From NCBI RefSeq assembly GCF_049337375.1, contig NZ_JBMPIV010000015.1: a DNA stretch of 35,397 nucleotides. The stretch is one strand, 5' to 3'. Positions 4,180-33,435 of the stretch are shown in pieces (the stretch's first letter is position 1; every line of letters starts with the position of its first letter). A program made the position numbers and the translations under genes. Below the pieces are notes generated by a model. The model worked only from the letters and a program-made list of their open reading frames with translations, did no database searches and was not told where the DNA came from. Origin of the DNA: Nannocystis pusilla (GTDB lineage Bacteria > Myxococcota_A > Polyangia > Nannocystales > Nannocystaceae).

Positions 4180-4255
4180 GAGGTGCGGCGGGAGGGCCGG
4201 CGGCGCGAGCGGGAGCGGCGGATCGGCGGCAGGGGTCGTGCGGGCAGGCGGCGGA

Positions 4256-4450
4256 TATGTCCCTTGGGACATGTCTTCAGGGGCGTTCGACGAGGGCGTG
4301 GGCGGAGCCGGGTCGGATGTCCCTGGGGACAGGTTGTCGGGGGCGGCCGGATCGGCTGTCCCCGAGGATGTGCGGTCGAGAGGGGACGGCGGAACAGGTG
4401 AGGGTGTCCTCTCGGGCATGTCATCCGAGACATGTCCCGAGGGTCCGACC
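4256..4450. repeat. cluster of five copies of the palindromic repeat family (TGTCCCTTGGGACATGTC, TGTCCCTGGGGACAGGTTGTC, GCTGTCCCCGAGGATGTG, GGGTGTCCTCTCGGGCATGTCATCCGAGACATGTCCCGAGGGTCC) in the divergent PAP2/SUKH-gene intergenic region
   Basis: read directly from the sequence; a further half-copy TTTGGGGACAGGTG lies at 4605-4626. Confidence 0.8.
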
Positions 4451-4742
4451 AGCTGCCAGGCGTTCGGTCTGGAAGCGCGCGCCAGCGGGTGGGCGGCCGC
4501 GGGCGGGGCGGCGAGGGCGAGGACCAGGGCCAGAGACAGGCAGCGCGACATGCTCGGTCGGACGAGTATGCCCAATCGCAGGCCGGCGGCGCCGAGATCG
4601 GATGGCTTTGGGGACAGGTGAGTCGCGGGCTCGGCCGGAGGCGCGTCGATCGCGCTGTGTTGGCAGAGGACGTCCGGGTCGAGCCCGATGGACGCCCTGC
4701 TGGCAGAGGACCTCCGGGTCGGGCTACATTGGGCGTCCAGCG

Positions 4743-6062: not shown

Positions 6063-6256
6063 GCGGCGGACCGGCCGCGAGGGCTCCTGCCCGAGCACGA
6101 ACGATGACTCCCTTCATTCGGGCCCCTCGTCTCGTGGCCGTTTCCACGGGTGCTCGGCCATGCGTTACCAGCGGCGATCCATCCTCGGCACAAGCCCTGG
6201 CAAAGGATGACGGGCGGCACGAGGAGGCGCGCCCACGGCGTCGTGCTGCGGCCGCT

Positions 6257-7483
6257 TCATCGAGGCGATGAGCGAGGGGGACCTGGCCGGTCCACGGTCG
6301 CCACCAGCGTCTCGTGCAGGAGCGCGAGCGCCACGGCGATGCCCACCAAGAACCACGGAATTGCGCCGAGCCCGAGCCGTTGGCCGAGCACACCTGCGAG
6401 GCTGGGCATGACGGCGATGCCCGCGGTCGCGGCGCTCACCTGAAAGCCCACGGCGTGGGCCGCGTGCGACCCCATGCGGCGCGGCGTCTCGGCCATCAGG
6501 ACCGGGTACATGGGGGCCAGGGCGAAGCCGAGGAGCGCGAGGCCGGCGAATGCCACCCCCTGCGGTAGCCCGGGGAGAGCGAACAAGGCCGCGCCGAGCA
6601 CGGCGAGCGCGGTGGCGAGGCGCACGAGGAGCACCGGGCCCACGCGTTCGACGACGAAGCCGAGGACGACGCGGCCGGCCAACAGGCTCGCCCAGTAGAG
6701 GCTGACCCGGGTACCGGCCTGAACTTCGTCGAGCCCCCGCGCCTCGGTGAGCACGGTGAAGGCCCATTGACCCGCGGACATCTCGAGGCCGGCGTACAGC
6801 AAGAAGAACCCGAGCTGCAGCCACATGCGAGGGCGGCGCAGCACGTGGGGCCCGGCGTCTGGCTCGGCGATCGCGGCCGAGGTCGCGGCGTCCGGGGCAC
6901 TGGGGGCGGCGCCTTCGTCCCAGCGCCGGCGGGTGAAGACGAAGGCGACCGCGAGCACGCCGAGCGCTCCGGCGAGGACCGCATATCCCGTGCGCCACCC
7001 GGCCTCGCGCGCGAGGACTGCCGTCATGAGGGCAGGCCCGAGCGCCGCGCCCAAGCTGTAGGCCGCATGAAGCCAGGTCATGTGGCGCGCGCCAAAGTTG
7101 TGCGCGACGTAGGCGTTGAGCGCGGCATCGATCGCGCCGGAGCCGAAGCCCCCGATGCACGCCGCGGCGAGGAAGACGCCGAGGTTCGGCGCCGCAGCGA
7201 ACCCCGCGACCGCCAGCGTGACGATCGCGGTGCTGCCTGCCAGGAGCGCGCCGAGCCCCACGCGACGCATGAGGCTGCCGGCCGCCAGCCCCGAGAGGAA
7301 GTACGAGACCGCCAGAGCGGCCAGCGGCGCGCCGAGTGCCGCCTGGGGCAGCGAGAAGGCGGCGCGCAGCGACGGCCAGGCCACTCCGAGCACCGCGTCG
7401 GGCAGCCCGAGGCTGATAAAGCCGAGGTAGGCGAGCACGAGGAGCGTGGTCAGGTGACGCGAGGAGGCGGTGGGCTCGGGCAT
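6257..7483 (-). CDS. MFS transporter
   Basis: 12-TM pattern; start at M25 of ORF 6257..7555 (MPEPTASSRHLTTLLVLAYLGF…). Confidence 0.8.
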   Translation of the reverse strand: MPEPTASSRHLTTLLVLAYLGFISLGLPDAVLGVAWPSLRAAFSLPQAALGAPLAALAVSYFLSGLAAGSLMRRVGLGALLAGSTAIVTLAVAGFAAAPNLGVFLAAACIGGFGSGAIDAALNAYVAHNFGARHMTWLHAAYSLGAALGPALMTAVLAREAGWRTGYAVLAGALGVLAVAFVFTRRRWDEGAAPSAPDAATSAAIAEPDAGPHVLRRPRMWLQLGFFLLYAGLEMSAGQWAFTVLTEARGLDEVQAGTRVSLYWASLLAGRVVLGFVVERVGPVLLVRLATALAVLGAALFALPGLPQGVAFAGLALLGFALAPMYPVLMAETPRRMGSHAAHAVGFQVSAATAGIAVMPSLAGVLGQRLGLGAIPWFLVGIAVALALLHETLVATVDRPGPPRSSPR

Positions 7484-9027: not shown

Positions 9028-9078
9028 GAGGACATGGCTGCGGGGCGGGGCGCGAGCCATCGCCTCCGCCCGGGCTGC

Positions 9079-14286: not shown

Positions 14287-14979
14287 GTGAACGGGTCCAG
14301 GGGCAACGGCGAGACGCGCGAGGCGATCCTCGACGCCACCGATCGGCTGCTGACGACCCGGGGGTTCCGCAGCGTGACGATGGACGATATCGCCGGCGAG
14401 GCGGGGGTCAGCCGCCGGACTGTCTACATGTACTTCCCGAGCAAGGAAGAGGTCGGGCTGTCGTCGATCGACCGGGTGGTAGCGCAGACCTACGCACGGC
14501 TGGCGGCGCTGGCCGGCGGGGGCGGCGATCCGGCCGAGGTGCTGCGCGCGGTGCTGATCGAGCGGGTGCTGCGGCGGCTCGACAGCGTCAGCGCGTACCG
14601 CCAGAGCCTCGACGAGCTGTTCGAGGCGGTGCGGCCGGGGTACATGGCCCGAAGGACAGCCCACATGGAGCGCGAGGTGGCGCTGGTGGCCGGGATCCTG
14701 GCGGCCGGCGTGGCGTGCGGGCGGTTCGAGCTCGAGGACGCGGCGGCGACGGCGTCGACCCTGGTGAAGGCGACCAACGCGTTCCTGCCGTACAGCCTGA
14801 GCGTCGCCGAGCTCGGCGAGCGGGCGAAGGTCGAGGTCGAGGTCCGGCGCATGGCGGCGCTGCTGCTGAAGAGCGTGGTCGCGCCGGAGCCTCGACGTGG
14901 GGCGAAGCGGCCGACGCGGGCGAAGCCGACACGGGGCAAGCCGGCGCGGGCGCGAGCTCGGACGCGTGGCGCGAAGTGA
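14287..14979 (+). CDS. TetR-family transcriptional regulator
   Basis: N-terminal HTH (ETREAILDATDRLLTTRGFRSVTMDDIAGEAGVSRRTVYMYFPSKEE); GTG start at 14287 downstream of the operators (the ORF's ATG at 14233 lies inside operator 1). Confidence 0.75.
   Translation: MNGSRGNGETREAILDATDRLLTTRGFRSVTMDDIAGEAGVSRRTVYMYFPSKEEVGLSSIDRVVAQTYARLAALAGGGGDPAEVLRAVLIERVLRRLDSVSAYRQSLDELFEAVRPGYMARRTAHMEREVALVAGILAAGVACGRFELEDAAATASTLVKATNAFLPYSLSVAELGERAKVEVEVRRMAALLLKSVVAPEPRRGAKRPTRAKPTRGKPARARARTRGAK
14641..14670. repeat. repeat-family copy (TACATGGCCCGAAGGACAGCCCACATGG) inside the TetR coding sequence
   Basis: shares the GACATGGCCCGAAG extension with copies at 20946 and 30573; atypical codons cga agg aca. 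Confidence 0.5.
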
Positions 14980-16134: not shown

Positions 16135-16148
16135 GGCGCGGCAGGGCG

Positions 16149-16388
16149 GGAGGACATGTCCGAGAGGACCTGTCTCGTGCGTGCGGAGGTCCGTGGGGAC
16201 ATGTCCTCTCGGACACTCCCGAGGGGACATGGCGGAGCGTCCGCGCGGCGCGCCCGTGCCGGCGCCGCGGGGAGGCGGTCTTTCGGGACATGTCCTTGCA
16301 GACATTTCCGCTGAGCTGGCGTCGGAGCGGCGCTCTCGTGGCCAGTTTTGTGTGTGGTGGTATTTGGGGACATGTCCTATCGGACGTG
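16149..16388. repeat. four repeat-family copies in the convergent intergenic gap between the S41 peptidase and SDR genes
   Basis: GGGAGGACATGTCCGAGAGGACCTGTCTCG; GGGGACATGTCCTCTCGGACACTCCCGAGGGGACATGGCGG; CGGGACATGTCCTTGCAGACATTTC; TTTTGTGTGTGGTGGTATTTGGGGACATGTCCTATCGGACGTGG. Confidence 0.85.
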
Positions 16389-16423
16389 GCCGACGAGACA
16401 GCAGGTTGGCGTCGGAGCGGCGC

Positions 16424-18420: not shown

Positions 18421-20316
18421 CTAGGAGGCGGGGACGGGCTCGGCCCCGAGGTCGCGGGCGAGGTCGGCGAGCTCGCCGATCGGGACCTGCAGCGCGGGCA
18501 GACGGGTGATGTCGGCCCGCGCGGCCTGGGCGATCGACTCGCTGGCGCGCATGATGAGGCCGCCGTTGGCGTCGGCGACGACGGTGTAGCCGGCCTTGCG
18601 CAGGCGGGCGAGCCGGGCCTGGGCGGCGGGGGTGAGGTCGGTGGCGGTGATGCGCAGGGATGGCACGCGGCCGGGCCAGAGGGCGGCGAGGTAGGCGGTG
18701 ATCCGCGGCGGGTAGACGACGCCGCCGGCTGTCTTTTCGTTCAGGTGGACGTCGACCAGCGCGGGGTAGCCGTGCACGTCGCAGCGGACCGCCCCGTGCA
18801 AGTGGCTGGTCCACATCGCCTCGGGGCTGACGGGCGCGGGCCACAGGCGGTCGAACCACGCGGCGATGGCGTCGTAGCTGGGGAGGCGCTGGCCGCCGAG
18901 CGCGTCGCCCAGGCGCTGGACCTCGGCGCCGAACCGCTCGCCGCGCTCCTCCCGGCGCAGGCGCAGGAGGATGGCGAGGACGGCGATGGCGATGGCGGCG
19001 TACCACAGGCCGAACAGCAGCAGCCCGCCGCAGACGATGGCGGCGAACAGGAGGCCGAGGCCGCCGTCGCGGACCTGTTGCTGGCGCCGCTCGTCGGCGT
19101 GGCGCGCCAGGAGGGCGCGGCGAGCGACCGCGAGGGCGCTGGCGGGGATCCGGCCCTCCGGCTCGGGGCCGGCGAGGTCGGGGCGATCGGGGAGGAAGGA
19201 GCGGACGGCGGCGATCAGGTCCCGGGTCGCGGGCGAGGCGGGGCTGTCGGCGGGCTCGCGCACCGCGGCGACCACCAGCGGCGCCTCGGCCAGACCGCCG
19301 GGCGGGGCCGCCAGCCCCGCCGTGGCCGAGGGGGTGCTGAGGCTGGCGCCGGAGCGGTTGGAGAGGATCGCCAGGAGCGAGGAGTTCGACGGGCTCATCG
19401 CGGCGCCCGGGAGGGTGTCGCTGGCGGCCGTCCGCGCGGCCGGGTCGCGGGCGAGGCTGGCCCCGAGGCCAGGTGCCTGCTCGCGCGGGGCGGGCAAGGG
19501 GCCGGACAGCGCGGCGGGGTCGAAGCCGGGAGCGACCGCGGTGCGGAGGCCCGGCGCGGCGGGTGAGCTGTCTGCAGGGACAGGTGATGAGGAGGCGCGG
19601 AGGGCGGCGAGGTGGCTGTCCGAAGGGACAGATGATGGCCGGCTGTCCGTGGGGACAGGCGGGGATCGCGTGGCCGCGGGGTCGAGGTCATGGCTGTCCG
19701 TGGGGACAGGCGGCCGGTGGCTGTCCGCAAGGGCAGGTTGATGGAGGCTGTCCGCAAGGACAGGCGCATCGACGGGCAGGGACAGCTGGGCCGGCTCCGG
19801 CGCGGCGTCGTGCCCGTGGGCGGCCAGGCCCGCGGCCGGCTCGGCCGACAGGGGGCCGGGGCGGGCGTCGGCCCAGCGGCCGGGGCGGGGGCCCTGCAGG
19901 GTGTCGCCGGGCTCGGGGGCGGCGAGCGGAGCGTTGCTGTCTCTCAGGACAGGTCGCAGGGGAGCCGGGACGGCGGGCGGCGGGGCCGGGCCGATCGAGA
20001 GCAGGGTGGTCGGCGGGACGGGCGCGGCGAGCAGCCTGGCCGAGGGCCCGGGCTGGTGGCGCGCGTGGAGCCGCGGGCTCGGCGGCGGGGCCTTGGCGTC
20101 GGGTTCGGGGCTGACCTTCGGGACAGGTGCGCTGTGGACCAGGTCGCTGACGGCCTGCTGGATCGCCCGCTCGTAGAGGGCCAGAGCGTCGGCGACGGCC
20201 GGCGGCAAGCCGTGGGGCTGCCGGCAGGCGGGGCAGTCGGCGGCGTCGCGGAGGTCGGCGAGCGAGAGCGCGTGCTGGCAATGCGGGCAGCGCAACGCGA
20301 GCGTCGGAGAGAGCAC
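18421..20316 (-). CDS. membrane-anchored protein: N-terminal zinc ribbon (CPHCQ…CPAC), long Pro-rich linker containing a six-unit repeat array, one TM helix, C-terminal globular domain of unknown function; 5' end uncertain (GTG 20316 or TTG 20295; the ORF opens at 20754)
   Basis: C-terminal ~220 aa non-repetitive and protein-like (…FDRLWPAPVSPEAMWTSHLHGAVRCDVHGYPALVDVHLNEK…); 4-nt gap to the downstream gene suggests an operon. Confidence 0.5.
   Translation of the reverse strand: MLSPTLALRCPHCQHALSLADLRDAADCPACRQPHGLPPAVADALALYERAIQQAVSDLVHSAPVPKVSPEPDAKAPPPSPRLHARHQPGPSARLLAAPVPPTTLLSIGPAPPPAVPAPLRPVLRDSNAPLAAPEPGDTLQGPRPGRWADARPGPLSAEPAAGLAAHGHDAAPEPAQLSLPVDAPVLADSLHQPALADSHRPPVPTDSHDLDPAATRSPPVPTDSRPSSVPSDSHLAALRASSSPVPADSSPAAPGLRTAVAPGFDPAALSGPLPAPREQAPGLGASLARDPAARTAASDTLPGAAMSPSNSSLLAILSNRSGASLSTPSATAGLAAPPGGLAEAPLVVAAVREPADSPASPATRDLIAAVRSFLPDRPDLAGPEPEGRIPASALAVARRALLARHADERRQQQVRDGGLGLLFAAIVCGGLLLFGLWYAAIAIAVLAILLRLRREERGERFGAEVQRLGDALGGQRLPSYDAIAAWFDRLWPAPVSPEAMWTSHLHGAVRCDVHGYPALVDVHLNEKTAGGVVYPPRITAYLAALWPGRVPSLRITATDLTPAAQARLARLRKAGYTVVADANGGLIMRASESIAQAARADITRLPALQVPIGELADLARDLGAEPVPAS
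19568..19770. repeat. array of six GCTGTCCGNNGGGACAGG(T/C)G units with irregular 27-51 bp spacing, encoding PVPTDS(H/R)-type peptide repeats in the linker of the 18421..20316 protein; more copies at 19935-19955 and 20108-20140
   Basis: read directly from the sequence. Confidence 0.8.
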
Positions 20317-20692
20317 GGCGGGACCATACCGCAGAACACGGGCGGCGGACCGGCCTGCGGGCGCGGGCGTGGGCGCGCAGGCGGAGGGGGCGGGCCGGGA
20401 GCGACGACGGCGGGTGTCGGCGGCGAGATCGCCGAGCGGGCTCGTCGGTGGCGACGGTCCCGAGCGCGGTCGAGATCGCGGCGGGGCGCGTGACGAGATC
20501 GACAGGGTCGGGCGGTGAGGTCGGTCCGCGAGGCGGGACGCAGTTCGTGGGTGGGGAGCCGGTAGCGGCGCCGTGCGGCCGGGACCGCGGAGCGGTGACG
20601 GGGCGGCGCCGGGCGCGGGCGAGGATGCGCGCGGCGGCGACTCGCGGTATGAGGAGGCGCCGCGCGCGACCGGCGGGCGGCGAGCTTTTACC

Positions 20693-23404
20693 GTGCCCGA
20701 TCTGCCCGTCTCGCCTCCTTCGCCCCGCGGCCTCGATCTCCCCGGCGCCGCCACTCAATTCGCGCCGCTCGTCGACGAGCGGCTGGCCAACGGCGCCCGC
20801 CTGCTGATCCTGCCCGGGCGACCGGCCGGGGCCGGGCCGGCGGCGGTGCAGCTGTGGGTCGGCTCGGGCACGGCGGCCGAGCGAGAGGACGAGCACGGCT
20901 GCGCCCACCTGCTCGAGCACATGCTCTTCAAGCCATGTGTTTTGGGACATGGCCCGAAGAGCAACCGCGCGCGCCTGGCTGCGGCCGGGGTGCGGCGGGC
21001 CGAGGAGGCGTTCGACCTGGCGGGCGCGATCGAGGCGCTCGGCGGCGACATCAACGCGTTCACCAGCCACGACGAGACGGTGGTCCACGTGACTACGCCG
21101 GCGGCCCGCGCGGCCGAGGCGGCGGCGCTGGTGGCCACCGCGACGCTGTTCCCGACGCTCGACCCGGCCACGCTGGGGCAGGAGCGCGAGGTGGTGATCG
21201 AGGAGATCAAGCAGTACGACGACGATCCGGGCCAGCGGGTGACGCAGGCGGCGCTGTCGCGGGTGTACGGGGCGCACGCGTACGCGCGGCCGGTGCTCGG
21301 CCTGGCGGAGGAGGTCGCGGGGCACTCGGCGGCGCGGCTGCGCGGGTATCACCGGCGGGCCTACGCCGGCGAGCGGCTGACTCTGGTGGCGGTCGGCGCG
21401 GTCGACGTGGCGGCGCTGCGCAAGGTGGCGCGGGCGATCGTCGGCGCGCTGCCGGCGGCCAAGAGGCGCGCGACGGCGGGCGAGCCGGCGGCGAAGCCGG
21501 GGGTGACGCTGCGCCGCGCCGAGGTCCAGGAGACCTACGCGCTGCTGGCCTGGCCGGCCCCGGCGGCGGGCGCGGCCGAGGCGGCGGCGATCGACGCGGC
21601 GGCGGTGGTGCTCGGCAACGGCGAGTCGTCGCGCCTGGTCGCCGAGACACGTCGCAAAGAACAGGTCGTCTCGGACATCCAGGCCCACTGCGACACGCTG
21701 CGCCACGGCGGGACGGTGATGGTGTCGGCGCGCACGACCGCGGGCCAGACGGCGGCGGCGGTGGCGGCGGTGCTGGCCCAGGTGCGGCGGCTGGCGGACG
21801 CGCCGGTGTCGGCCGAGGAGCTGGCGCGGGCCAAGGCGATCCTCGAGAGCGACCTGGTGTACCGGCGCGAGACGGTGCAGGGCCAGGCCCACGCGCTCGG
21901 GGCCTGCGCGACGCTGTTCGGCGACCTGGCCCGCGAGCGCGAGTACTACGCGGCCCTGGCGGCGCTGACGCCCGAGGCGGTCCGCTCGGCCTGCGCGCGC
22001 TGGCTCGACCCGGCGCGCGCGAGCGTCAGCCTCGAGCTGCCGCGCGCGGAGGTGGATGTCCAAACGGCCAGGTCGATCAAGGCCGCGGTGGCCGAGGCGC
22101 TGAAGCCGGCGCCGACGCCGGGGCGCGCCGGGGCGACGCCGCGCCGGGCCAGCGACGGGATCGAGACGGTGACCCTGGCGTGCGGGCTGCGCCTGCTGGC
22201 GCGGGTCGAGCCGGCGGTGCCGGTGGCGGCGGGCTGGCTGATCTGGCCGGGCGGGCTGCGGCGCGAGCCGGCGGCGCTGGCCGGCGCGAACTCGGTGATC
22301 GCGGCGCTGCTGACCCGCGGCAACGCCCGCACCGGCGGCGAGGCGCTGAGCCGGGCGATCGACGGGATGGCCGCGGGGCTCGACGGCTTCGCCGGCCGCA
22401 ACAGCCTGGGCCTGCACTTCGAGTGCCTGAGCCGCCACTTCCCGGCGGTGCTCGGGCACGCGCTCGACTGCGCGACGACACCGAAGTTCGCGGCCGACGA
22501 GCTCGAGGAGGAGCGGCGGGTGGCGCTGCAAGATCTGGCGGCCGAGGTCGACGACCCGGGCGCGGTGGCCAGCCGCGGGCTCAACGCGCTGCTGTACGGC
22601 GAGCACCCGTTCAGCCGCCCGGGCCGCGGCACGCCGGCCGGCCTGCGGGCGCTGACGCCGGCCAAGCTGCGGGGGCTGTGGCGCCGCGACTACCCGATCG
22701 GGCAGGCGGTGCTGGCCCTGGCCGGCGACATCGACGTCGCGGCGGCGGCGGCTCAGGTCGAGGCGGCGCTGCGCGAGGCTGGCCTCGGGGACAGGCTGTC
22801 TGAAGGGCCAGGTGCGCCGAAGAAGTTCGCGGCGCCGACCGGGCCGCGCGAGCGCGAGATCTTCCAGGACCGCGAGCAGGCCCACATCGCCCTCGGCTGG
22901 CCGGGCATCGCCGTGGGCGACGAGCGCGAGCCGACCCTCGACGTGCTCAGCGCGGTGCTCGGCGGCCAGACCGGGCGGCTGTTCACGGCGCTGCGCGAGG
23001 TCCAGGGGCTGGTGTACGAGGTGTCGATGAGCAGCGTCGAGGGCCTCGACGCCGGCCACGTGGCGATCCACGCGTCGACGAGCCAGGACAAGCTGCCGAA
23101 GGCGATGGCCGCGATCGCGGCGGAGGTCGAGCGCGCGGTGCGAGAGCCGCCGTCGGCGGCGGAGGTCGAGCGCGCCAAGGCGTGGCTGGTCGGCCAGTTC
23201 GAGCTCGGCCAGCAGCGCCGCAGCCGGATGGCGTCGCTGCTGGCGCTGTCCGAGGTCTACGGGCTGCCGCGCGCGCGCGCGTTCGCGTACCCGCAGCGGG
23301 TCGCGGCGGTGACCGCCGAGGGGGTGTGGGCGCTGGCGAGGACGCTGTTCCGCCCGCAACGCGCGGCCCGCTGCGTGGTCCGGGCGCGCCGGCGCAAGGG
23401 CTGA
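20693..23404 (+). CDS. two-unit M16-family (pitrilysin-like) zinc metallopeptidase carrying an 18-aa in-frame insertion right after the HxxEH motif
   Basis: HLLEHMLFK…DINAFTSHDETVVHV plus second M16 unit; GTG 20693 start is an inference (the ORF opens at 20573). Confidence 0.75.
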   Translation: MPDLPVSPPSPRGLDLPGAATQFAPLVDERLANGARLLILPGRPAGAGPAAVQLWVGSGTAAEREDEHGCAHLLEHMLFKPCVLGHGPKSNRARLAAAGVRRAEEAFDLAGAIEALGGDINAFTSHDETVVHVTTPAARAAEAAALVATATLFPTLDPATLGQEREVVIEEIKQYDDDPGQRVTQAALSRVYGAHAYARPVLGLAEEVAGHSAARLRGYHRRAYAGERLTLVAVGAVDVAALRKVARAIVGALPAAKRRATAGEPAAKPGVTLRRAEVQETYALLAWPAPAAGAAEAAAIDAAAVVLGNGESSRLVAETRRKEQVVSDIQAHCDTLRHGGTVMVSARTTAGQTAAAVAAVLAQVRRLADAPVSAEELARAKAILESDLVYRRETVQGQAHALGACATLFGDLAREREYYAALAALTPEAVRSACARWLDPARASVSLELPRAEVDVQTARSIKAAVAEALKPAPTPGRAGATPRRASDGIETVTLACGLRLLARVEPAVPVAAGWLIWPGGLRREPAALAGANSVIAALLTRGNARTGGEALSRAIDGMAAGLDGFAGRNSLGLHFECLSRHFPAVLGHALDCATTPKFAADELEEERRVALQDLAAEVDDPGAVASRGLNALLYGEHPFSRPGRGTPAGLRALTPAKLRGLWRRDYPIGQAVLALAGDIDVAAAAAQVEAALREAGLGDRLSEGPGAPKKFAAPTGPREREIFQDREQAHIALGWPGIAVGDEREPTLDVLSAVLGGQTGRLFTALREVQGLVYEVSMSSVEGLDAGHVAIHASTSQDKLPKAMAAIAAEVERAVREPPSAAEVERAKAWLVGQFELGQQRRSRMASLLALSEVYGLPRARAFAYPQRVAAVTAEGVWALARTLFRPQRAARCVVRARRRKG
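20924..20977 (+). repeat. 54-bp element-derived in-frame insertion (CCATGTGTTTTGGGACATGGCCCGAAGAGC…) encoding PCVLGHGPKSNRARLAAA inside the M16 peptidase
   Basis: compared with the canonical HxxEHMxFKGT spacing recalled from MPP-beta and pitrilysin; atypical codons tgt gtt ttg gga cat. Confidence 0.6.
22787..22816. repeat. repeat-family copy (GGGGACAGGCTGTCTGAAGGGCCAGGTGCG) in-frame in the M16 inter-unit linker
   Basis: read directly from the sequence. Confidence 0.55.
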
Positions 23405-23429
23405 GCCCCTGTTCTCCGCGACAGGTCGA

Positions 23430-23459
23430 GAGTGACATGTCCCCGGGGACATGTCACTC
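23430..23459. repeat. perfect 30-bp palindrome GAGTGACATGTCCCC|GGGGACATGTCACTC built from the repeat core, filling the convergent gap between the M16 gene and the next gene
   Basis: reverse complement equals itself, checked base by base. Confidence 0.9.
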
Positions 23460-23468
23460 GGGCCATGG

Positions 23469-23897: not shown

Positions 23898-24163
23898 GCG
23901 GCGAGTCTGGCACGCCGCGGGGGCGCTGTCACGGCGCCAGCGTGGCCAAGAGGACATGTTGGATAGAACATGGCGAAAGGGTCATGTTCGATGCGACGCG
24001 CGAGGTCGGCGTGGACCGTGGAGGGTGCCGGCCCTGCTGGCAGGCTGCGCCGAGCGCTGCCTGCTCGTCGAGGGCGCGGGTCGATGGGACGAGGGGGGCA
24101 TGGCTCCTCCGCGACCGGCGACGGAGTCCGGCGTGGACGTCTGATCTTTAAAATAAGCTGTCC

Positions 24164-26210: not shown

Positions 26211-26332
26211 GAGGACATGCGCGCGAGGACATGCGCGCGAGGACATGCGCGCCAGGGCATGCGCGAGGACATGCGCGCGAGGACATGCGCGCGAGGACAT
26301 GCGCGCGAGGACATGTCCGAGAGGACATGCCC
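26211..26332. repeat. microsatellite-like tandem array, about nine units of GAGGACATGCGCGC (14 bp), ending in GAGGACATGTCCGAGAGGACATGCCC. An expansion of the repeat-family half-site
   Basis: read directly from the sequence; lies just 3' of the stop at 26347. Confidence 0.9.
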
Positions 26333-26346
26333 TCGGAGCCAGCGGC

Positions 26347-28128
26347 TCAGGCGGCGGAGGCGACGCCGAGGGTGCGGGCGAGGGCGCGGGCGACCGCGAG
26401 GGGGCGGCCCTTGAACACGCGGACGTACGGGATGGCGCTGGCCCGGGCGGCGCGGGCGAGGATCCCGTCGATGTTGTGGGCCTGGAAGCCGGTGGCGATG
26501 AGCACGTAGTCGTAGCTGTGGCGCGAGATGCTCTCGCACTGGGCCTGGACCTTGCGGGCGTTGCCGTCGCACCAGGTGATGTCGAGGCCGAGCGACTCCT
26601 CGAGCTTCGACTTGAGGTCGGGGTCCTCGCGGTTGCTGACGAACAGGACCCGCTTGCCCTCGACCTTGGGCCGGACCTGGGCGACCAGGTGCGCGCCCGG
26701 ATCGTCGACGTCGTCGGTCTCTTCCTCGAGGTCGCTGTCGCTGTCGGACGGCAGCACGCCGAGCTCGCCGCGCTTGATCACGTCCTGCAGGCCGGTGAGG
26801 CGGCGACGCATGCGGCGGTCCTCGAACAGGTCGGGGCGCAGGGCGTCGATGCGCGGGCGGATCGGCTGGACCAGCGACGCGACCTCGGGCGTGTTGTGGG
26901 CGTCGAAGGCCCGGCCGAGGAAGGCGAGCAGGGCCTCGTCGTCGAAGCTGTCGGCGGCGACCAGGGCGTCGCGTTCGGCTCGCACCGCCGCTTGCTGCTG
27001 GCGGACCTGATCGGCCGAGGGCCCGGTCTTGGCGCGCTCGGGCGGCGGGATGAACTCGGGGTCGAGCCAGCGGCGCAGCTGCGGCAGGCGCTCGCCGAGG
27101 CGCCCCGCGAGCCAGCGCAGGCGGCCCATGACGGCGCCCCAGGTCTCGGGGTCCTCGGCGGCGATGAAGCGACGGATGTCGCGCAGCGCCTGGGCGTGCT
27201 TGACGAGCGCGTCGAGCTGCTCGTTCGGCAGCTCCTCCGGCGGCGTGGTCAGGTGGCGCGGCGGCGGGTCGGTGACGTTGCCGGCGATGGCCTCGACGGC
27301 GCGCTGGGCCTCGCGCAGGAGGGCGCGCGGCTGGCCCGGCGGGGCCTTGCGCGGGCGGTCGGCCCAGCCGTAGTCGTCGACCGGGACCTCGCTGGTCATC
27401 GCGCGCTCGCGATGGTTCTGCACGAACTCGTGCGCCTCGGCCCAGGTCTTCGGCGCGTGCAGCGTCTTCAGCCCGAGCTCGGTGACCACGCACGCGGGCA
27501 CCGCGTTCATCTGCAGCGCCTGCACCGAGCCGGGCCACAAGGTCTTGCTGAGGTTCGTCAGCTCGTGGGCGATCCGCCGCACCAGCACGGTGATCTTGTG
27601 CTCGCCCTGGAACTGCTCGTCGAAGCTGCGCGCGCGGGAGATCCACGCCAGCATGTAGACCTTCTGATAGCGCGGCGACATCAGCGCGAAGTCGGGCCGC
27701 ATGTCCTGGATGTCCTTGAGGATCTCTTCCAGGGTCTCACGCGCCTCGGCGACCGCAGCAGCGGGATAAGTCGGTAGCTGGATCCGGCCGACGATCGGGC
27801 TGCGCGGTAGCTCGGGCTGCTCGGGCGCGGCGGGCGGGGCGGTGGGGATAACTTCGGGGGATACTGCGGCGCTGGGTGGCGCCGCCTGCGGACGGGCTGG
27901 CTCCTGGAGGCCGTCGCGGAAGCGATCGAAGAGTTGACGCGCGGCCGCCGACGGAAACATCTGCGTCAGCGCATCTTCGAGGGCGCTGTCACGATCGGGT
28001 CCGCGGCCGAGCCACCGCTCCGTGTCGCGCCAGATCAGCACCTCGGTCCACTGATGGGTATACATCGCGTGGCGGTAGCCGCTGTCCGCGAGAAACTTGG
28101 GTAGCCAGCGCGCGCCGTCGTCGTGCAT
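26347..28128 (-). CDS. hypothetical protein (593 aa); acidic linker and conserved-looking C-terminal domain
   Basis: long non-repetitive ORF with typical codon usage; lies 180 bp downstream of FabG on the same strand. Confidence 0.55.
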   Translation of the reverse strand: MHDDGARWLPKFLADSGYRHAMYTHQWTEVLIWRDTERWLGRGPDRDSALEDALTQMFPSAAARQLFDRFRDGLQEPARPQAAPPSAAVSPEVIPTAPPAAPEQPELPRSPIVGRIQLPTYPAAAVAEARETLEEILKDIQDMRPDFALMSPRYQKVYMLAWISRARSFDEQFQGEHKITVLVRRIAHELTNLSKTLWPGSVQALQMNAVPACVVTELGLKTLHAPKTWAEAHEFVQNHRERAMTSEVPVDDYGWADRPRKAPPGQPRALLREAQRAVEAIAGNVTDPPPRHLTTPPEELPNEQLDALVKHAQALRDIRRFIAAEDPETWGAVMGRLRWLAGRLGERLPQLRRWLDPEFIPPPERAKTGPSADQVRQQQAAVRAERDALVAADSFDDEALLAFLGRAFDAHNTPEVASLVQPIRPRIDALRPDLFEDRRMRRRLTGLQDVIKRGELGVLPSDSDSDLEEETDDVDDPGAHLVAQVRPKVEGKRVLFVSNREDPDLKSKLEESLGLDITWCDGNARKVQAQCESISRHSYDYVLIATGFQAHNIDGILARAARASAIPYVRVFKGRPLAVARALARTLGVASAA

Positions 28129-29257: not shown

Positions 29258-29545
29258 ATGACAGAGACCGCGCCGCCCGAAGCCCTGGTCCGCGAGATCA
29301 AGGAGCTCATCATCGAGGCCCTGATGCTGCAGGACATGACCCCCGAGGACATCGACCCGGAGGCGCCGCTTCTGGTCGAGGGGCTGGGCCTCGACTCGAT
29401 CGACGTGCTCGAGCTGGCGATGGCCATCGGCAAGAAGTACGGCGTCAAGACCCGCGCCGACGACGCCCAGAACCGACACATCTTCGCCAGCGTGACCAAC
29501 CTGGCCCGCTTCGTCGCCGAACAGCGCGCGCCGGCGGCGAGCTGA
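29258..29545 (+). CDS. acyl carrier protein
   Basis: GLDSID phosphopantetheine-attachment motif; 95 aa. Confidence 0.85.
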   Translation: MTETAPPEALVREIKELIIEALMLQDMTPEDIDPEAPLLVEGLGLDSIDVLELAMAIGKKYGVKTRADDAQNRHIFASVTNLARFVAEQRAPAAS

Positions 29546-29553
29546 GGCCCGAC

Positions 29554-30204
29554 ATGGCGGACCCGAACGGCGAGCCGCGGCGAGCCGCGGGGGTCCCCAG
29601 GTGGGTGCCCGCGGTGCTGCGGTCGGTGGTGATCGGCGGCTATCCGCTGGTCGTGTACCTCGGCATGACGCGCTGGAGCCCGCGCACCCTGGCGCTGGTG
29701 CTGGCGGTGGCGCTGCTCCCGGGGCTTCTGCTGCGCCTGCGCGAGGCCCGGCGCGAGGACCTGTGGCCGGTGCTGCGGGTGCCGCTGTCGCTGTTCGGGC
29801 TGTTCGCGGCGGCGGCGCTGTCGGGCGAGCAGCGGCTGTTCATGGCCCTGCCGGTGCTGGTCAACCTGGGCCTCTTGGCCAACTTCGCCGCCAGCCTGCG
29901 CGGGCCGGTGTCGCTGGTCGAACGGTTCGCACGCCTGCAGGAGCCCGACCTGCCGCCCGGCGGGCCGGCGTACTGCCGCACCTGGACCAAGATCTGGTGC
30001 GGTTTCTTCGTCGCCAACGCGGCCGTCAGCGCCGGCCTGGCGCTGTGGGCCCCGGTGGCCTGGTGGACGCTCTACACCGGACTTTTGGCCTACCTGCTGA
30101 TCGGGGTAATGTTCACCGTCGAGTTCGTCGTCCGCAAGGCGACCTTCCGTCGCTTCGGCGACGGGCTGCCCGACCGCCTGCTCCGCCGACTGCTCCGCGC
30201 ATGA
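29554..30204 (+). CDS. integral membrane protein of the lipid cluster
   Basis: multiple TM helices; stop overlaps the next start (ATGA at 30201-30204). Confidence 0.65.
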   Translation: MADPNGEPRRAAGVPRWVPAVLRSVVIGGYPLVVYLGMTRWSPRTLALVLAVALLPGLLLRLREARREDLWPVLRVPLSLFGLFAAAALSGEQRLFMALPVLVNLGLLANFAASLRGPVSLVERFARLQEPDLPPGGPAYCRTWTKIWCGFFVANAAVSAGLALWAPVAWWTLYTGLLAYLLIGVMFTVEFVVRKATFRRFGDGLPDRLLRRLLRA

Positions 30205-32255
30205 AGTCGTTCGCCCCGCTCGTCCACACCGATCCCGCGGCGCTCGTCGCCGTGGGCGAGGCCGGCGCGCGCACGGCCGGCGAGCTCATGCGCGACGCGA
30301 GGGCCGTCGCGGCGCGGCTGCCGGCGCCGATGCCGGGGAGCGAGGTGCTGGTGGTGTGCGGCGACCGCTACCACCTGGCGGTGACGACCCTGGCGGCGTG
30401 GCTGCGCGGCCACGCGGTCGCGCTGCCGCCCAACGCCCAGCCGGCGGCCGTGCGCGAGCTGGCCGGGCGGCCGTCGGTGGTCGCGCTGCTGCACGACTCC
30501 GACCTGGCCGACGCGCAGGACGTCCGCGAGTGGCTGGAAGGACATGTTTCAGGGGACATGGCCGATCCGACATGGCCCGAAGCGCTGGCGCCCGATCGCC
30601 GGCTGGCGGTCGTGTACACCTCGGGCAGCACCGGCGATCACCAGCCGTGCGCCAAGACGGCCGCGCAGCTGCTCGGCGAGGCGCAGGCGCTGGCGGCCAC
30701 GTTCGCCCTGCGGGCCGGCGAGGTGGCGCTGGCGACGGTGCCGCCGTACCACCTCTACGGGCTGCTGTTCGGGATCCTGGCGCCGCTGGCTGCGGGGGCG
30801 GCGTTCGCCCGCGAGACGCCGCTGCACGCCGAGACGGTGGCCCGGGCGGCGCGGCAGGTGGAGGCGACGGTGCTGGTCAGCACGCCGGCGCACCTGCGCG
30901 GGCTGACGGTGCTGACGCGCGGCGACCTGCCGCCGCTGTCGCGGGTGTTCTCGTCGGGCGCGCCGCTGCCGCGGGCCACCGCCGACGAGCTGCTGACCAA
31001 GCTGGGCCTGCAGGTGACCGAGGTGTACGGCTCGTCGGAGACCGGCGGGATCGGCTGGCGGCGGCACGAGGATGTTTTAAAAGACATGTCCCCGGAGCCA
31101 GCCTGGACGCCGCTGCCGGGAGTGACGGTCGAGGTGGCGGCCGAGGGGCGGCTGCTGCTGCGCTCGCCGTTCTTGGCCCCGGACGCGCCGGTGCCGTACC
31201 CGTGCGAGGATCGCGTCGAGGTCGACGCGCGCGGCGGGTTCCACCTGCGCGGGCGGCTCGACGGGGTGGTGAAGATCGCCGGCAAGCGGGTGGCGGTGGC
31301 CGAGGTCGAGCAGCGCCTGCTGGCGCTGGCGGCGGTGGCCGACGCCGCGGTGGTGGCGGTCGAGTCGCCGGGCGCGCGCGGGCACGAGCTGGTGGCCGCC
31401 GTGGTGGCGCGCGAGGCCGGGCGCGACGCCGCCGAGCTGGTGGCCGAGCTGCGGCGGGCGCTGCTGCCGTGGTTCGACCCGGTGGTGGTGCCGCGGCGGA
31501 TCAAGGTGGTGCCGGCGCTGCCGCGCGAGCCGAGCGGCAAGCTGACGCGGCGCAAGCTGCACGCGCTGCTCGGGCTCGCGGGCGAGGAGGAGAGTGCGTC
31601 GGGTGGCGCGAAGGACATGTCTGTGAGGACAGATGCCGACGCAGCGAGCGCGGGTCCGAGGCTCGGTGGCGCGAGGGACATGTCCGCGGGGACAGAGGCC
31701 GCACCAGAGCGCGGTGGCGCGAGGGACATGTCCGCGGGGACAGAGGCCGCACCGGAGCGAGGTGGCGCGAGGGACATGTCCGCGGGGACAGATGCCGATC
31801 CGGAGCGCGGTGGCGCGAGGGACATGTCCGCGGGGACAGAGGCCCATGGGGCGTCGTGGGGTGTCTCGCGAGACATGTCCGCGGGGACAGGTGGCGCGTC
31901 GGCGTTCGCGCTGGGCGGCCACGCGCGGCGCGACGAGGGCGGGGCGGCGGTGCACGAGGTCGAGGTGGGGGTGCCGGTCGACCTTGCGTTCTTCTGCGGG
32001 CACTTCGACGCGCTGCCGGTGCTGCCGGGGGTGGCGCAGCTGACCGCGCTGGTGGTGCCGCAAGTGGCGGCGCTGCGGCCGGAGCTGGGGCCGCTGAGGC
32101 GGGCGGCGCGGCTGAAGTTCACCCGGCCGATCGCGCCGGGCGACGCGCTGGTGCTGCGGCTCGAGGTCCGCGGGACTCAGGTCCGCTTCTCGTTGGCGCG
32201 GGCCGGCGAGGTGGTCACGGCGGGGGCGCTCGAGTACGAGGCGCGCGGAGGCTGA
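30201..32255 (+). CDS. AMP-dependent synthetase/ligase fused through a 5.5 x 16-aa repeat linker to a FabA/FabZ-like hotdog dehydratase domain
   Basis: YTSGSTG and GSSETGG AMP-binding motifs; FFCGHFDALPVLPGVAQL matches the hotdog dehydratase active-site motif; the true ATG at 30201 overlaps the upstream stop. Confidence 0.8.
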   Translation: MKSFAPLVHTDPAALVAVGEAGARTAGELMRDARAVAARLPAPMPGSEVLVVCGDRYHLAVTTLAAWLRGHAVALPPNAQPAAVRELAGRPSVVALLHDSDLADAQDVREWLEGHVSGDMADPTWPEALAPDRRLAVVYTSGSTGDHQPCAKTAAQLLGEAQALAATFALRAGEVALATVPPYHLYGLLFGILAPLAAGAAFARETPLHAETVARAARQVEATVLVSTPAHLRGLTVLTRGDLPPLSRVFSSGAPLPRATADELLTKLGLQVTEVYGSSETGGIGWRRHEDVLKDMSPEPAWTPLPGVTVEVAAEGRLLLRSPFLAPDAPVPYPCEDRVEVDARGGFHLRGRLDGVVKIAGKRVAVAEVEQRLLALAAVADAAVVAVESPGARGHELVAAVVAREAGRDAAELVAELRRALLPWFDPVVVPRRIKVVPALPREPSGKLTRRKLHALLGLAGEEESASGGAKDMSVRTDADAASAGPRLGGARDMSAGTEAAPERGGARDMSAGTEAAPERGGARDMSAGTDADPERGGARDMSAGTEAHGASWGVSRDMSAGTGGASAFALGGHARRDEGGAAVHEVEVGVPVDLAFFCGHFDALPVLPGVAQLTALVVPQVAALRPELGPLRRAARLKFTRPIAPGDALVLRLEVRGTQVRFSLARAGEVVTAGALEYEARGG
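30537..30584. repeat. repeat-family copy (GAAGGACATGTTTCAGGGGACATGGCCGATCCGACATGGCCCGAAGCG) in-frame in the ligase, encoding EGHVSGDMADPTWPEA just before the YTSGSTG motif; a second copy at 31071-31099 encodes DVLKDMSPEP
   Basis: atypical codons (gtt tca, aca, gaa, tta aaa). Confidence 0.7.
31603..31905. repeat. tandem array of about 5.5 units of 48 bp, each GGTGGCGCGAGGGACATGTCCGCGGGGACAGAGGCCGCACC(A/G)GAGCG(C/A), encoding (ERGGARDMSAGTEAAP)n between the ligase and dehydratase domains
   Basis: read directly from the sequence; not CRISPR-like because the units have no unique spacers. Confidence 0.9.
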
Positions 32256-32269
32256 GGCGGTGCGTATGG

Positions 32270-32403
32270 CCGAAGGGGCAGGTCGTTGCCAGATGTCCGG
32301 GAGGACAGGTCGTCCGCCGACGGTCGGCGGGCGGGGTGCGCCCCGCGGCGGGAGGCGGGCATGAGCGCGGACGGAGGCCAGGATGTGTCCCGAGGGACAG
32401 GTG
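32270..32403. repeat. repeat copies in the ligase/GT2 intergenic region and in the first 15 codons of GT2 (CCGAAGGGGCAGGTCGTTGCCAGATGTCCGGGAGGACAGGTCGTCC; GGATGTGTCCCGAGGGACAGGTG)
   Basis: read directly from the sequence. Confidence 0.75.
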
Positions 32404-33176
32404 AAGCCGGGGCCGCGGCGTTCCGGCCGTGCGCGCTGATCCCGACCTTCGACAACCCGCGGACGGTGCGGGACGTGGTGCTGCGGGTCAAGGCGCACCT
32501 GCCCGACGTGGTGGTCATCGACGACGGCTCGGGGCCGGAGGGCCGCGCCGCGGTCGAGGCGCTCGGGGCGGAGGGGCTGGCGCACGTGCGGCGACGGCCG
32601 CACAACGGCGGCAAGGGGGCGGCGGTCAAGACCGGGTTCCAGTTCGCCCACGAGCTCGGCTACACCCACGCGCTGCAGGTCGACGCCGACGGGCAACATG
32701 ACCTGGGGGACATCCCGCAATTCCTCGCCACCGCGCGCGAGCGGCCGGACGCGCTCGTCCTCGGGGCGCCGGTGTACGACGCGTCGGCGCCCAAGGGGCG
32801 GCTCGTCGCCCGCAAGATCACGCTGTTCTGGACCAACTTCGAGGCGGGGCGCGGGGTCATCACCGACCCGATGTGCGGCTTCCGCGTGTACCCGCTGGCG
32901 CCCGCGCTGGCGCTCGGGCGCACCGGCGACCGCATGGACTTCGACATCGAGATCGCGGTCCGCCTGGTGTGGGCGGGGGTGCCGGTGATCAACCTGCCGA
33001 CCAAGGTCCGCTACATCGGCCGCGACGAGGGCGGAGTGTCGCACTTCCGCGTGTTCGGCGACAACGTCAAGATCTCGTGGCTGCACACCCGGCTGTCGTT
33101 CCAGCGGGTGATGGTGCGCCCGTGGGTCAACCTCTACCGCCGCCTGCGCCGCCCGGCGCTGCCGGCCGGCCGCTGA
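32361..33176 (+). CDS. family-2 glycosyltransferase (polyprenyl-phosphate sugar transferase-like)
   Basis: GGGAGG Shine-Dalgarno 6 nt before ATG 32361; …ALIPTFDNPRTV…VVVIDDGSGPEG…QVDADGQHD motifs. Confidence 0.8.
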   Translation: MSADGGQDVSRGTGEAGAAAFRPCALIPTFDNPRTVRDVVLRVKAHLPDVVVIDDGSGPEGRAAVEALGAEGLAHVRRRPHNGGKGAAVKTGFQFAHELGYTHALQVDADGQHDLGDIPQFLATARERPDALVLGAPVYDASAPKGRLVARKITLFWTNFEAGRGVITDPMCGFRVYPLAPALALGRTGDRMDFDIEIAVRLVWAGVPVINLPTKVRYIGRDEGGVSHFRVFGDNVKISWLHTRLSFQRVMVRPWVNLYRRLRRPALPAGR

Positions 33177-33186
33177 GGGGCTGCGC

Positions 33187-33252
33187 GAGAGGACAGGTTC
33201 GATCGGCCATGGCTCATCAGGCAGGTGCGGGGGGACATGTCCCGGAGGACAA
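33187..33252. repeat. repeat copy (GAGAGGACAGGTTCGATCGGCCATGGCTCATCAGGCAGGTGCGGGGGGACATGTCCCGGAGGACAACC) between the GT2 and acyltransferase genes
   Basis: read directly from the sequence. Confidence 0.75.
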
Positions 33253-33263
33253 CCGGGCCGGGG

Positions 33264-33435
33264 CCGCGGCGGGCGAGCGCGGGGCGGGCGTGCCGGCGAC
33301 CGCCGCCGGGCAGGGGAGCGAGCGCGAGGCGGGCGGCGCCGCGGCGGGCGAGCGCGGGGCGGGCGTGCCGGCGACCACCGCGGGGCAGGGGAGCGAGCGC
33401 GAGGCGGGCGGCGCCGCGGCGGTCGAGGGCGACCG
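33264..33435. repeat. 75-bp tandem duplication (2.3 units) encoding (AAAGERGAGVPATAAGQGSEREAGG)n upstream of, or inside a 5' extension of, the acyltransferase gene
   Basis: read directly from the sequence. Confidence 0.85.

Follow-up and report, generated by a model that had tools for sequence, protein, structure and literature searches.

Probable in-frame relics of a palindromic hairpin repeat in an acyl-AMP ligase of Nannocystis pusilla

The 35,397-nucleotide stretch of Nannocystis pusilla DNA analysed here (the window, taken at its full length) carries an acyl-AMP ligase gene in which two short patches, together with tandem repeats in an inter-domain linker, are probably in-frame and partly decayed copies of a hairpin repeat of the Nannocystis lineage. 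The repeat unit consists of a conserved 10-nt palindrome, GGACATGTCC, and a 4-nt spacer that is unconserved in the position matrix. The most fitting reading of the ligase copies is that of fossil passengers derived from a hairpin repeat of the REP/TRIT type; an analogous case is that of the Rickettsia palindromic elements (RPEs). Judged from the sequence, the rare codons that mark these patches appear to be the footprint of the repeat and to indicate neither foreign DNA nor a disrupted gene.

Translated repeat units in the ligase

The host gene encodes 684 amino acids, and its ATG at 30201 overlaps the stop codon of the upstream membrane-protein gene. Pfam matches place an AMP-binding domain (PF00501, 1.2e-29) at residues 13-314, an AMP-binding_C domain (PF13193, 1.1e-11) at residues 368-447 and an ApeI/FabA hotdog domain at about residues 590-661. 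An N-terminal AMP-binding domain followed by a small C-terminal domain is the arrangement of the ANL family, and the Protein Data Bank matches are acetyl-CoA synthetases and other ANL enzymes. By these signatures the gene product is predicted to be an ANL adenylation domain fused to an ApeI/FabA-type dehydratase. The motifs YTSGSTG (the P-loop, residues 139-145), YGxxETGG, GRxDxxxKxxG and the C-terminal PRExxGKL are invariant in the ortholog alignment (A1), and AMP-binding proteins of N. pusilla are 88-89% identical to the window ligase. The reading frame, whose integrity the original prediction had left as a point to be checked, is uninterrupted. The gene and its repeat-bearing segments are as follows.

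30201..32255, plus strand: host gene, acyl-AMP ligase with ApeI/FabA-type dehydratase (open reading frame, Pfam, invariant core motifs)
30540..30577, plus strand: site 1, three units (GGACATGTTT, GGACATGGCC, CGACATGGCC) at a 14-nt period, translated as EGHVSGDMADPTWP (residues 113-126)
31068..31091, plus strand: site 2, a 24-nt two-unit copy (GAGGATGTTT-TAAA-AGACATGTCC), translated as EDVLKDMS (residues 290-297)
31602..31893, plus strand: inter-domain linker with 48-bp tandem repeats (tandem repeat finder), each containing GGGACATGTCC-GCGG-GGACA and translated as GGARDMSAGTEAAPER

Site 1 reads GGACATGTTT-CAGG-GGACATGGCC-GATC-CGACATGGCC, with the units spaced by exactly 14 nt; because 14 is not a multiple of 3, each falls in a different frame, giving G-H-V, D-M and T-W. 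The original prediction had placed two in-frame copies in the adenylation domain, the first just upstream of YTSGSTG, and site 1 indeed ends 12 residues before that motif. The second copy, which had been assigned to the C-terminal subdomain, belongs instead to the N-terminal AMP-binding domain, where it falls in a loop bounded by strands 282-288 and 302-304; only from about residue 355-368 onwards does the C-terminal subdomain follow. At site 2 the first unit, GAGGATGTTT, is degenerate, and orthologs in the loci labelled L003-L006 retain a clearer one, for example GAGCATGTCC-TCGG-GGACATGTCT. The linker repeat has a 48-bp period, 3.8 copies and a 94% match, and its six units start at 31613, 31676, 31724, 31772, 31820 and 31871. 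Ligase peptides that would bear the inserts, as predicted from the translation, are EWLEGHVSGDMADPTWPEALAPDR and DMSPEPAWTPLPGVTVEVAAEGR.

Codon usage singles out the same segments. Scored in 8-codon windows against a reference table of 6080 codons from 18 confident genes of the window, the ligase has its lowest adaptation at site 2 (0.134) and site 1 (0.224), compared with 0.74 for the whole gene, which bears out the earlier claim of locally atypical codon usage; the next-lowest windows are all linker repeats, except one that is the second half of site 1. The codons GTT, TCA, TTA, AAA, GGA and ACA each make up <8% of their own synonymous set. The first four of these had been named as rare, correctly, along with GGG, GAC and ATG, which are not. 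TTA occurs 0 times among the 6080 reference codons and once inside site 2 (31077-31079); L001 and L002 also have it, at sites 1 and 2. It probably stems from the AT-richer spacer of the repeat rather than from a regulatory use; bldA-like control through this codon was considered and dropped, since the codon is present in only 3 of 7 species. The ligase contains 10 matches of the GGACATGTC type and 2 unit pairs, as against 1.5 and 0 pairs in 300 codon permutations.

In an AlphaFold2 model of the ligase (mean predicted local distance difference test, pLDDT, 79), sites 1 and 2 are modelled as coil with a block pLDDT of about 60 (site 2 about 59; <50 at residues 115-117), and linker residues 463-566 are predicted to be disordered. 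The DPTWPEA segment reaches a block pLDDT of about 82 and is, on this model, probably now a structural part of the protein. At the nucleic acid level, excess folding is absent from the ligase copies (z -0.37 at site 1, -0.27 at site 2 and -0.36 for one linker unit). Protein columns are variable at 9 of 19 scored positions in the patches and at 68 of 424 elsewhere in the ligase. No excess synonymous conservation was found in the patches (7/10, compared with 234/356 in the rest of the gene) in a seven-species comparison of low power, the species being only 2-9% diverged in DNA and offering few sites.

The repeat unit, its lineage and its genomic habitat

Successive matches to the unit lie 14 nt apart in 82 of about 150 cases, with minor peaks at 28 and 42, and agreement around independent anchors is 5.5 of 10 bases at +/-14 nt and about 2.7 at other offsets. 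The window holds 57 matches to GGACATGTC with <=1 mismatch (6.5 expected from dinucleotide shuffles), 14 unit pairs at 14-nt spacing (0 in 100 shuffles) and 17 exact copies of GACATGTC (0.22 expected from base composition), an enrichment of about 80-fold seen only in the Nannocystis lineage. The 10-mer equals its own reverse complement, and neighbouring units therefore pair as a hairpin: a two-unit copy makes a stem-loop of 24 nt, in which 10 bp of stem enclose a loop of 4 nt, and the sum of stem and loop gives the 14-nt period a structural reason. A frequent form of the copies is a full central unit between half units, CCTGTCC-N4-GGACATGTCC-N4-GGACAGG. Non-coding two-unit copies (36-40 nt) fold at -13.6 to -25.7 kcal/mol, with z of -2.4 to -5.3 against shuffles, and the reference example lies between two convergent genes:

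23428..23459, no strand: perfect two-unit hairpin GAGAG-TGACATGTCC-CCGG-GGACATGTCA-CTC in a 64-nt convergent spacer (23405-23468)

This hairpin folds at -25.7 kcal/mol (z -4.35), and its stem, like that at 4408-4443, is prolonged by copy-specific complementary flanks. Loop and spacer sequences differ from copy to copy, and deviations from the palindrome can be symmetric within a copy (T1/A10 at 23433; C5/G6 in L008).

Tests were made for an RNA-specific structure. Stem mismatches are symmetric with respect to the sense strand (G-T 11 vs 11, A-C 11 vs 14). Loops of the UNCG/GNRA type made up 24% vs 8% at first count, and a TTCG/GAAG strand asymmetry was seen at first; no sense-strand loop bias was left after redundant copies had been removed and loops oriented by the upstream gene. 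Since mismatches are symmetric and loops unbiased, an RNA-only structure is unsupported. Direct reading of the sequence found no T-run after the hairpins ending at 23459, 16175, 4276 and 26332, so that these hairpins are not canonical intrinsic terminators. A scan of the window against Rfam gave no family match. No description of the repeat was found in the searchable literature on Nannocystis repeats, the 10-mer or myxobacterial REPs; matches to the 10-mer were p53 or primer noise. Among viral contigs, a scan for CATGTCC-N4-GGACATG yielded 103 single matches, judged to be about chance, and no arrays, and there is thus no phage link.

The survey of the lineage covered 80 reference-genome loci, each surrounding a ligase homolog. 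Among them, the six cultured Nannocystis species have 8-11 exact copies of GACATGTC per 22 kb where about 0.13 would be expected, and cultured Nannocystis overall range from 8 to 17 per 22-35 kb. Nannocystis metagenome-assembled genomes have 2-3, and metagenome relatives at 68-75% ligase identity 0-2 per 6-16 kb, from which it follows that the repeat is far denser in cultured Nannocystis. In Enhygromyxa, Plesiocystis, other Nannocystaceae, Anaeromyxobacter, Planctomycetota and the remaining outgroups the count is about 0. When metagenomes were scanned for the perfect 24-mer, 91 stretches were found, and the 80 that were made into loci (522 kb) are nearly all of 68-77% GC; outside the copy by which each was selected, these loci contain 108 more units (0.22 per kb), again with 14-nt periodicity.

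To locate arrays relative to genes, genes were called by the phase of third-position GC content (GC3) in 180-nt flanks, a procedure checked on the Pfam-supported genes of the window. The classified arrays fall as follows.

Between convergent genes: 34 of 149
Between divergent genes: 0 of 149
Adjoining a 3' end: 39 of 149
Adjoining a 5' end: 12 of 149
Between same-strand genes in different frames: 7 of 149
In longer non-coding stretches: 25 of 149
Read through in an open reading frame: 32 of 149 (about one fifth)

Non-coding arrays start 0-20 nt past the upstream stop codon in 75 of 151 cases. The main habitat of the repeat is the first 30 nt or so past stop codons, at convergent gene pairs especially.

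Where units are read through, they occur in the frames D-M-S (25), G-H-V (11) and T-C-P (7), and the peptide GHVxxDMS recurs from two-unit copies in unrelated open reading frames. This is the sole frame of the 24-mer without a cysteine codon, and in it the borders of the element coincide with those of codons, 8 in all. In other frames the TGT codon is often altered, to TGG in unit 3 of site 1, to TAT in a copy at 4253-4276 and to GGT in GGACAGGTCC variants. Such a frame pattern fits a DNA element filtered by protein tolerance, as far as sequence can tell, and not a peptide motif. A protein search with the RDMSAGT linker repeats gave no match at E <= 0.01, the query being too short and of low complexity.

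The ligase copies are old. All six cultured Nannocystis species (91-98% DNA identity) have the same units at both sites, and those of site 1 are common to L001-L006, L083 and L084; L084 reads GGGCAGGTCC-CGGA-GGACATGGCC-GAGT-GGACATGGCC, and L083 is comparable. Metagenome relatives at 70-75% amino acid identity carry the residues and the DNA units of both sites, and decayed remnants extend to about 60% identity: the units are decayed in the metagenome relatives L081 and L085, Nannocystis L008-L010 (58-62% identity) have GGAGCTGTCC-CCGG-GGACAGGTCC, and L007 has a remnant only. In ligase homologs at <=56% identity there is no trace of units. Their presence in all cultured species and in relatives means that the copies predate the radiation of the clade, and we infer from these alignments that they entered the ligase before Nannocystis radiated. 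The original prediction had proposed a shared inserted element and had named the same residues in orthologous ligases as the outcome that would speak against it. Every cultured Nannocystis ortholog has those residues. This refutes a recent, strain-specific insertion and not an origin from an element, the copies being ancient and fixed. What stands of the proposal is a repeat at the DNA level, with non-coding copies, three frames and lineage enrichment; a recent or clean insertion does not.

With 29 residues the site 1 loop is close to the 24-28 of motif-free outgroups, and site 2 has about 6 residues more than its outgroup counterparts; at such lengths a clean 42-nt or 24-nt insertion is not demonstrated. 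The linker has 6 units in the window and 0-4 in orthologs (none in L005); L007-L008 have a far shorter one, and the proteins of the relatives L081-L085 are shorter as well (578-608 amino acids). By sequence comparison, net gain of element-bearing sequence is clear in the linker, at two gene junctions of the ligase cluster and in a 30-bp insert of L003. The number of units at sites 1 and 2 is constant across all orthologs, on which ground phase variation by gain or loss of 14-nt units was dropped; a gene fusion that trapped an intergenic hairpin was likewise dropped as the source of the linker copies, the ligase-dehydratase fusion being older than the motif. Non-coding arrays differ in number and position between species whose flanking genes are 91-98% identical, and such fast turnover is more in keeping with a repeat that proliferates or is neutral than with functional sites conserved one by one.

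Other copies and neighbouring features of the window

Further copies of the repeat are found in the window at the following places.

4253-4276 and 4414-4437, minus strand: two two-unit copies in the N-terminal part of the PAP2 open reading frame (3421-4575), translated as EDMSQGTYP and GHVSDDMP
16152..16391, no strand: four arrays of 2-3 units each between convergent S41 peptidase (plus strand) and SDR (minus strand) genes
26213..26332, no strand: nine tandem 14-bp units GAGGACATGCGCGC, 15 nt past the stop codon of the minus-strand gene 26347..28128
32265..32404, plus strand: expanded ligase/GT2 junction with three two-unit elements (32265-32285, 32290-32312, 32381-32404)
33189..33254, plus strand: GT2/acyltransferase junction with elements at 33189-33215 and 33231-33254, followed by a 75-bp tandem repeat (33254-33431)

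The GHVSDDMP copy of the PAP2 frame, already recognised in the original prediction as yielding the same peptide theme, retains strong folding (4408-4443, -23 kcal/mol, z -5.3). The frame begins with a signal-peptide-like MSRCLSLALVLALAAPPAAA, followed by a Pro/Ser/Thr-rich stretch, and its GC3 falls to 0.72 across the copies. From these features the 5' extension of the PAP2 frame may be real coding sequence with two in-frame copies; the drop in GC3 and the persistent folding count to the contrary. In the arrays between the convergent S41 peptidase and SDR genes, 16146-16181 has a folding z of -3.1.

Array length and position vary between relatives. The tandem 14-bp array has 9 units in the window, about 22 in N. 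pusilla L001 (about 5830-6130) and 3 in L002; in L003, L005 and L006 scattered TGTCC-GAAG-GGACA hairpins take its place. The two junctions within the ligase cluster (32256-32402 and 33177-33424) measure 140-250 nt and hold five elements in the window, and in L081-L085 the same genes overlap or are separated by 3-4 nt (in L081, ligase and GT2 overlap and GT2 and acyltransferase are 3 nt apart). The additional 30-bp insert of L003, at the ligase/GT2 junction, contains ATGTCC-GCAG-GGACAG. It is the only clean case of presence and absence, filled and empty pairs being few, and has no target-site duplication of the kind that flanks the terminal inverted repeats of a miniature inverted-repeat transposable element (MITE). 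The convergent spacer at 23405-23468 is also an indel hot spot: its equivalents in L001 (2150-3035), L003 (2720-3670) and L006 (3040-3870) contain an extra small minus-strand gene, with an apparent lipoprotein-like N-terminus, a Thr/Ser-rich stretch and a Cys-rich C-terminal part.

The 13-mer ACATGGCCCGAAG occurs three times, in a TetR gene (14640-14659), in the N-terminal region of an M16 peptidase (20934-20961) and at ligase site 1 (30568-30583); the unit and a CGAA spacer are thus shared beyond the 10-mer core, which hints at copy-to-copy descent for at least some copies. Tandem repeats of 27 bp at 19641-19766, in the minus-strand frame 18421..20754, each contain GGCTGTCC-N4-GGACAGG, a half-unit variant of the hairpin. 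They are probably translated as a linker of 9-residue repeats in a 777-residue protein without Pfam match, the flanks having the same minus-strand coding phase. Units of the GGACATGG type overlap apparent start codons at 9030-9039 (ATG 9034) and 29547-29556 (ATG 29551), at 23952-23972 with a divergent CAT (23955-23957) and ATG (23970-23972), and at the acyltransferase start in L081 (about 6450-6470); this could be chance or a matter of start-codon context, or element ATGs could serve as new start codons. In the acyl carrier protein gene, 29332-29356 reads GGACATGACC-CCCGA-GGACATCGAC (LQDMTPEDIDP), with the first unit kept in the distant L081 (3078) and L084 (738). It may be ordinary acyl carrier protein sequence that resembles the unit, and it was not counted as a copy. 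Unrelated to the hairpin repeat are tandem repeats of 150 bp and 312 bp (79-87% match) at 1045-1636, in a Cys-rich minus-strand open reading frame with weak RING or zinc-finger-like Pfam matches.

The window has a GC content of about 72-75%. Neighbours of the ligase are genes for a FabG-like protein (minus strand), an acyl carrier protein, a membrane protein, a GT2 glycosyltransferase and a lipid-A-type acyltransferase; syntenic clusters of relatives add an aromatic-lyase-family protein (PF00221), a thioesterase, a LolA-like protein and an MMPL protein. By gene content, the ligase-dehydratase is part of an aryl-polyene-like cluster together with the acyl carrier protein, membrane protein, GT2 and acyltransferase genes.

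Competing explanations, known repeat systems and significance

We read the ligase copies as passenger relics, part of which, on the structure model, would have been absorbed into the fold. A 24-nt copy amounts to 8 codons and three periods (42 nt) to 14, and since both lengths divide into codons, such copies keep the reading frame. Selection at the protein level would then retain mainly the frame free of cysteine and stop codons, GGA-CAT-GTC-CNN-NNG-GAC-ATG-TCC, read as G-H-V-x-x-D-M-S. In the ligase the copies lie in the disordered linker and, within the N-terminal adenylation domain, in two variable loops at the surface; after entry they lost their hairpin potential and have probably been carried on as passenger peptide. 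Several observations weigh against this account. Loop sequences that differ between copies are unusual for copy-and-paste elements. Net insertion is not demonstrated at site 1, which obliges one to assume either a deletion that compensated for it or conversion in place, and at the loci examined there was no target-site duplication, terminal repeat or transposase. The location statistics depend on GC3-phase gene calls and on loci picked for one perfect 24-mer. Without an excess of synonymous conservation, the ligase copies are neither demonstrably selected nor demonstrably neutral.

It seems unlikely that the motif is instead a functional, genome-wide nucleic-acid signal whose ligase copies are kept by selection on that signal, with the coding sequence doing double duty. 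Candidates would be a TRIT-like, factor-dependent bidirectional terminator, an uptake or recombination signal of the DUS/USS or HIP1 kind, or a binding site of a dimeric protein at TGTCC-N4-GGACA. A conserved core with freely varying spacers is as expected for a recognised sequence, the very narrow post-stop placement with its strong convergent bias is TRIT-like (PMC3152330), the over-representation is within the 15- to 300-fold of HIP1 (PMC5861425), and units 2 and 3 of site 1 agree at 19/20 bases between the window and L084, whose proteins are 75% identical. However, the ligase copies have neither hairpin potential (z about -0.3) nor excess synonymous conservation, their decay is visible in L081, L085 and L007, and non-coding copies turn over and are not kept at orthologous positions, unlike HIP1; nor does the lack of a U-tract behind the hairpins help the proposal, or the symmetric stem mismatches and unbiased loops that leave an RNA-only structure unsupported. 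A further proposal dispenses with insertion altogether, the copies having arisen in place through a motif-biased process that rewrote existing variable loops at unchanged length, be it ectopic gene conversion from other copies, template switching at quasi-palindromes or a short-patch repair linked to methylation, which has been proposed for HIP1. Net sequence gains elsewhere (the L003 insert, the expanded junctions and the linker) speak against it, three phased units by substitution alone would take about 20 directed changes, and no such mechanism or associated enzyme was identified in this analysis, which together make it improbable in our estimation, even if the near-outgroup length of the site 1 loop, the individual loop and spacer sequence of each copy and the symmetric deviations at 23433 and in L008, as correction towards a perfect palindrome would give, are in its favour.

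That the patches are a peptide motif selected for enzyme function or regulation, the similarity in DNA being secondary, is scarcely credible. The invariance of D-M and T-W-P in cultured species and the fairly confident modelling of the DPTWPEA block would agree with it; the identical DNA units read in three frames within site 1 already contradict it, as do units in non-coding DNA, the rare codons, homologs at <=56% identity that lack units and the freely varying residues encoded by the spacers. Three familiar arrangements were considered and dropped as well: a CRISPR-like array, with spacers of only 4 nt; iterons; and a PadR-type ATGT-N8-ACAT operator, which fits the sequence, although thousands of sites at 3' ends are unlike a transcription-factor regulon.

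A parallel to the passenger-relic reading is offered by the RPEs of Rickettsia, palindromic repeats that are intergenic and also lie in frame inside unrelated genes, where they add a fold-compatible peptide (PMC10969869). The Nannocystis repeat is likewise both intergenic and in frame, the ligase frame being read through at three sites and about 32 of 149 arrays in other open reading frames, and its peptide is added in surface loops of coil or low pLDDT. RPEs differ in being about 100-150 bp long, in forming ten families with a conserved peptide and in residing in small obligate-intracellular genomes, whereas the Nannocystis unit has 14 nt, its copies 24-42 nt with variable spacers, and its hosts, the cultured Nannocystis, are free-living with longest contigs of 11-13 Mb; there is no sequence relationship between the two. 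TRIT (tuberculosis rho-independent terminator) is a genus-restricted, conserved palindromic hairpin of Mycobacterium with 147 copies, centred at about -8 relative to the stop codon (PMC3152330). Shared with it are restriction to a lineage, a sequence-conserved hairpin in many copies of a high-GC genome, narrow placement at stop codons and bidirectionality by symmetry, and a role in termination is, by sequence, a candidate. Unlike TRIT, the Nannocystis motif is most frequent 0-20 nt past the stop, forms chains with a 14-nt period and also has copies that are translated within open reading frames.

REPs (repetitive extragenic palindromes) and BIMEs are imperfect palindromes of 20-40 nt that form stem-loops, are clustered, mostly lie at gene 3' ends and vary between strains; REPs are extragenic by definition and have a conserved GTAG-type head recognised by RAYT, a Y1 transposase. 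The Nannocystis repeat resembles them in stem-loops, clustering, 3'-end placement and variability among strains and species, and differs in that about 20% of its arrays are intragenic; the position matrix has no GTAG-like head and no conserved flank beyond GGACATGTCC. HIP1 of cyanobacteria is a short palindrome 15- to 300-fold over-represented in one lineage (PMC5861425; PMC4390886). The Nannocystis palindrome likewise exceeds expectation by one to two orders of magnitude, and does so within genes, in all frames, as well as outside them. HIP1 differs in having sites conserved between genomes, where non-coding copies in Nannocystis turn over, and cognate methyltransferases, and in lacking hairpin pairs, 14-nt arrays and a preference for 3' ends. 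The DUS of Neisseria and the USS of Pasteurellaceae form inverted pairs behind genes and also occur in open reading frames, in tolerated frames; they are neither palindromic nor arranged in fixed-period arrays. The Nannocystis repeat is comparable to these in density (about 0.2-0.5 per kb), in forming inverted pairs downstream of genes and in having coding copies in tolerated frames. None of RPE, TRIT, REP and HIP1 is a sequence relative of the Nannocystis repeat.

It is a more tentative proposal, possible and on balance doubted here, that the GGACATGTCC hairpin repeat, which in Nannocystis and its close relatives probably numbers thousands in a genome of 12 Mb, is an active system: either a mobile hairpin that settles at gene ends as well as in reading frames and thereby rewrites loops and linkers, or a recognised signal of the TRIT, HIP or DUS kind, the genic copies of which are kept up at the level of nucleic acid. 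Taken by itself, the ligase is a case of modest interest, and more of the interest lies in the family of repeats from which its copies come.

For annotation, and for Nannocystis biosynthetic clusters in particular, it matters that the ligase's patches of rare, AT-richer codons are neither foreign DNA, nor sequencing error, nor pseudogenisation. By its sequence, a non-coding repeat seems to have become part of the surface loops of an enzyme. The family joins REP/TRIT-type placement at 3' ends with RPE-like in-frame colonisation, in one of the largest bacterial genomes. Should the pattern hold family-wide, GHVxxDMS would be a marker peptide for element-derived protein segments, the copies would form a natural data set on loops that tolerate 8-16 extra residues, and the hairpins would be candidates for non-canonical termination or 3'-end protection in a high-GC lineage without U-tract terminators at these sites. 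If the mobile-hairpin reading is true, protein loops and linkers would be rewritten across the proteome, an RPE-like process in a large free-living genome.

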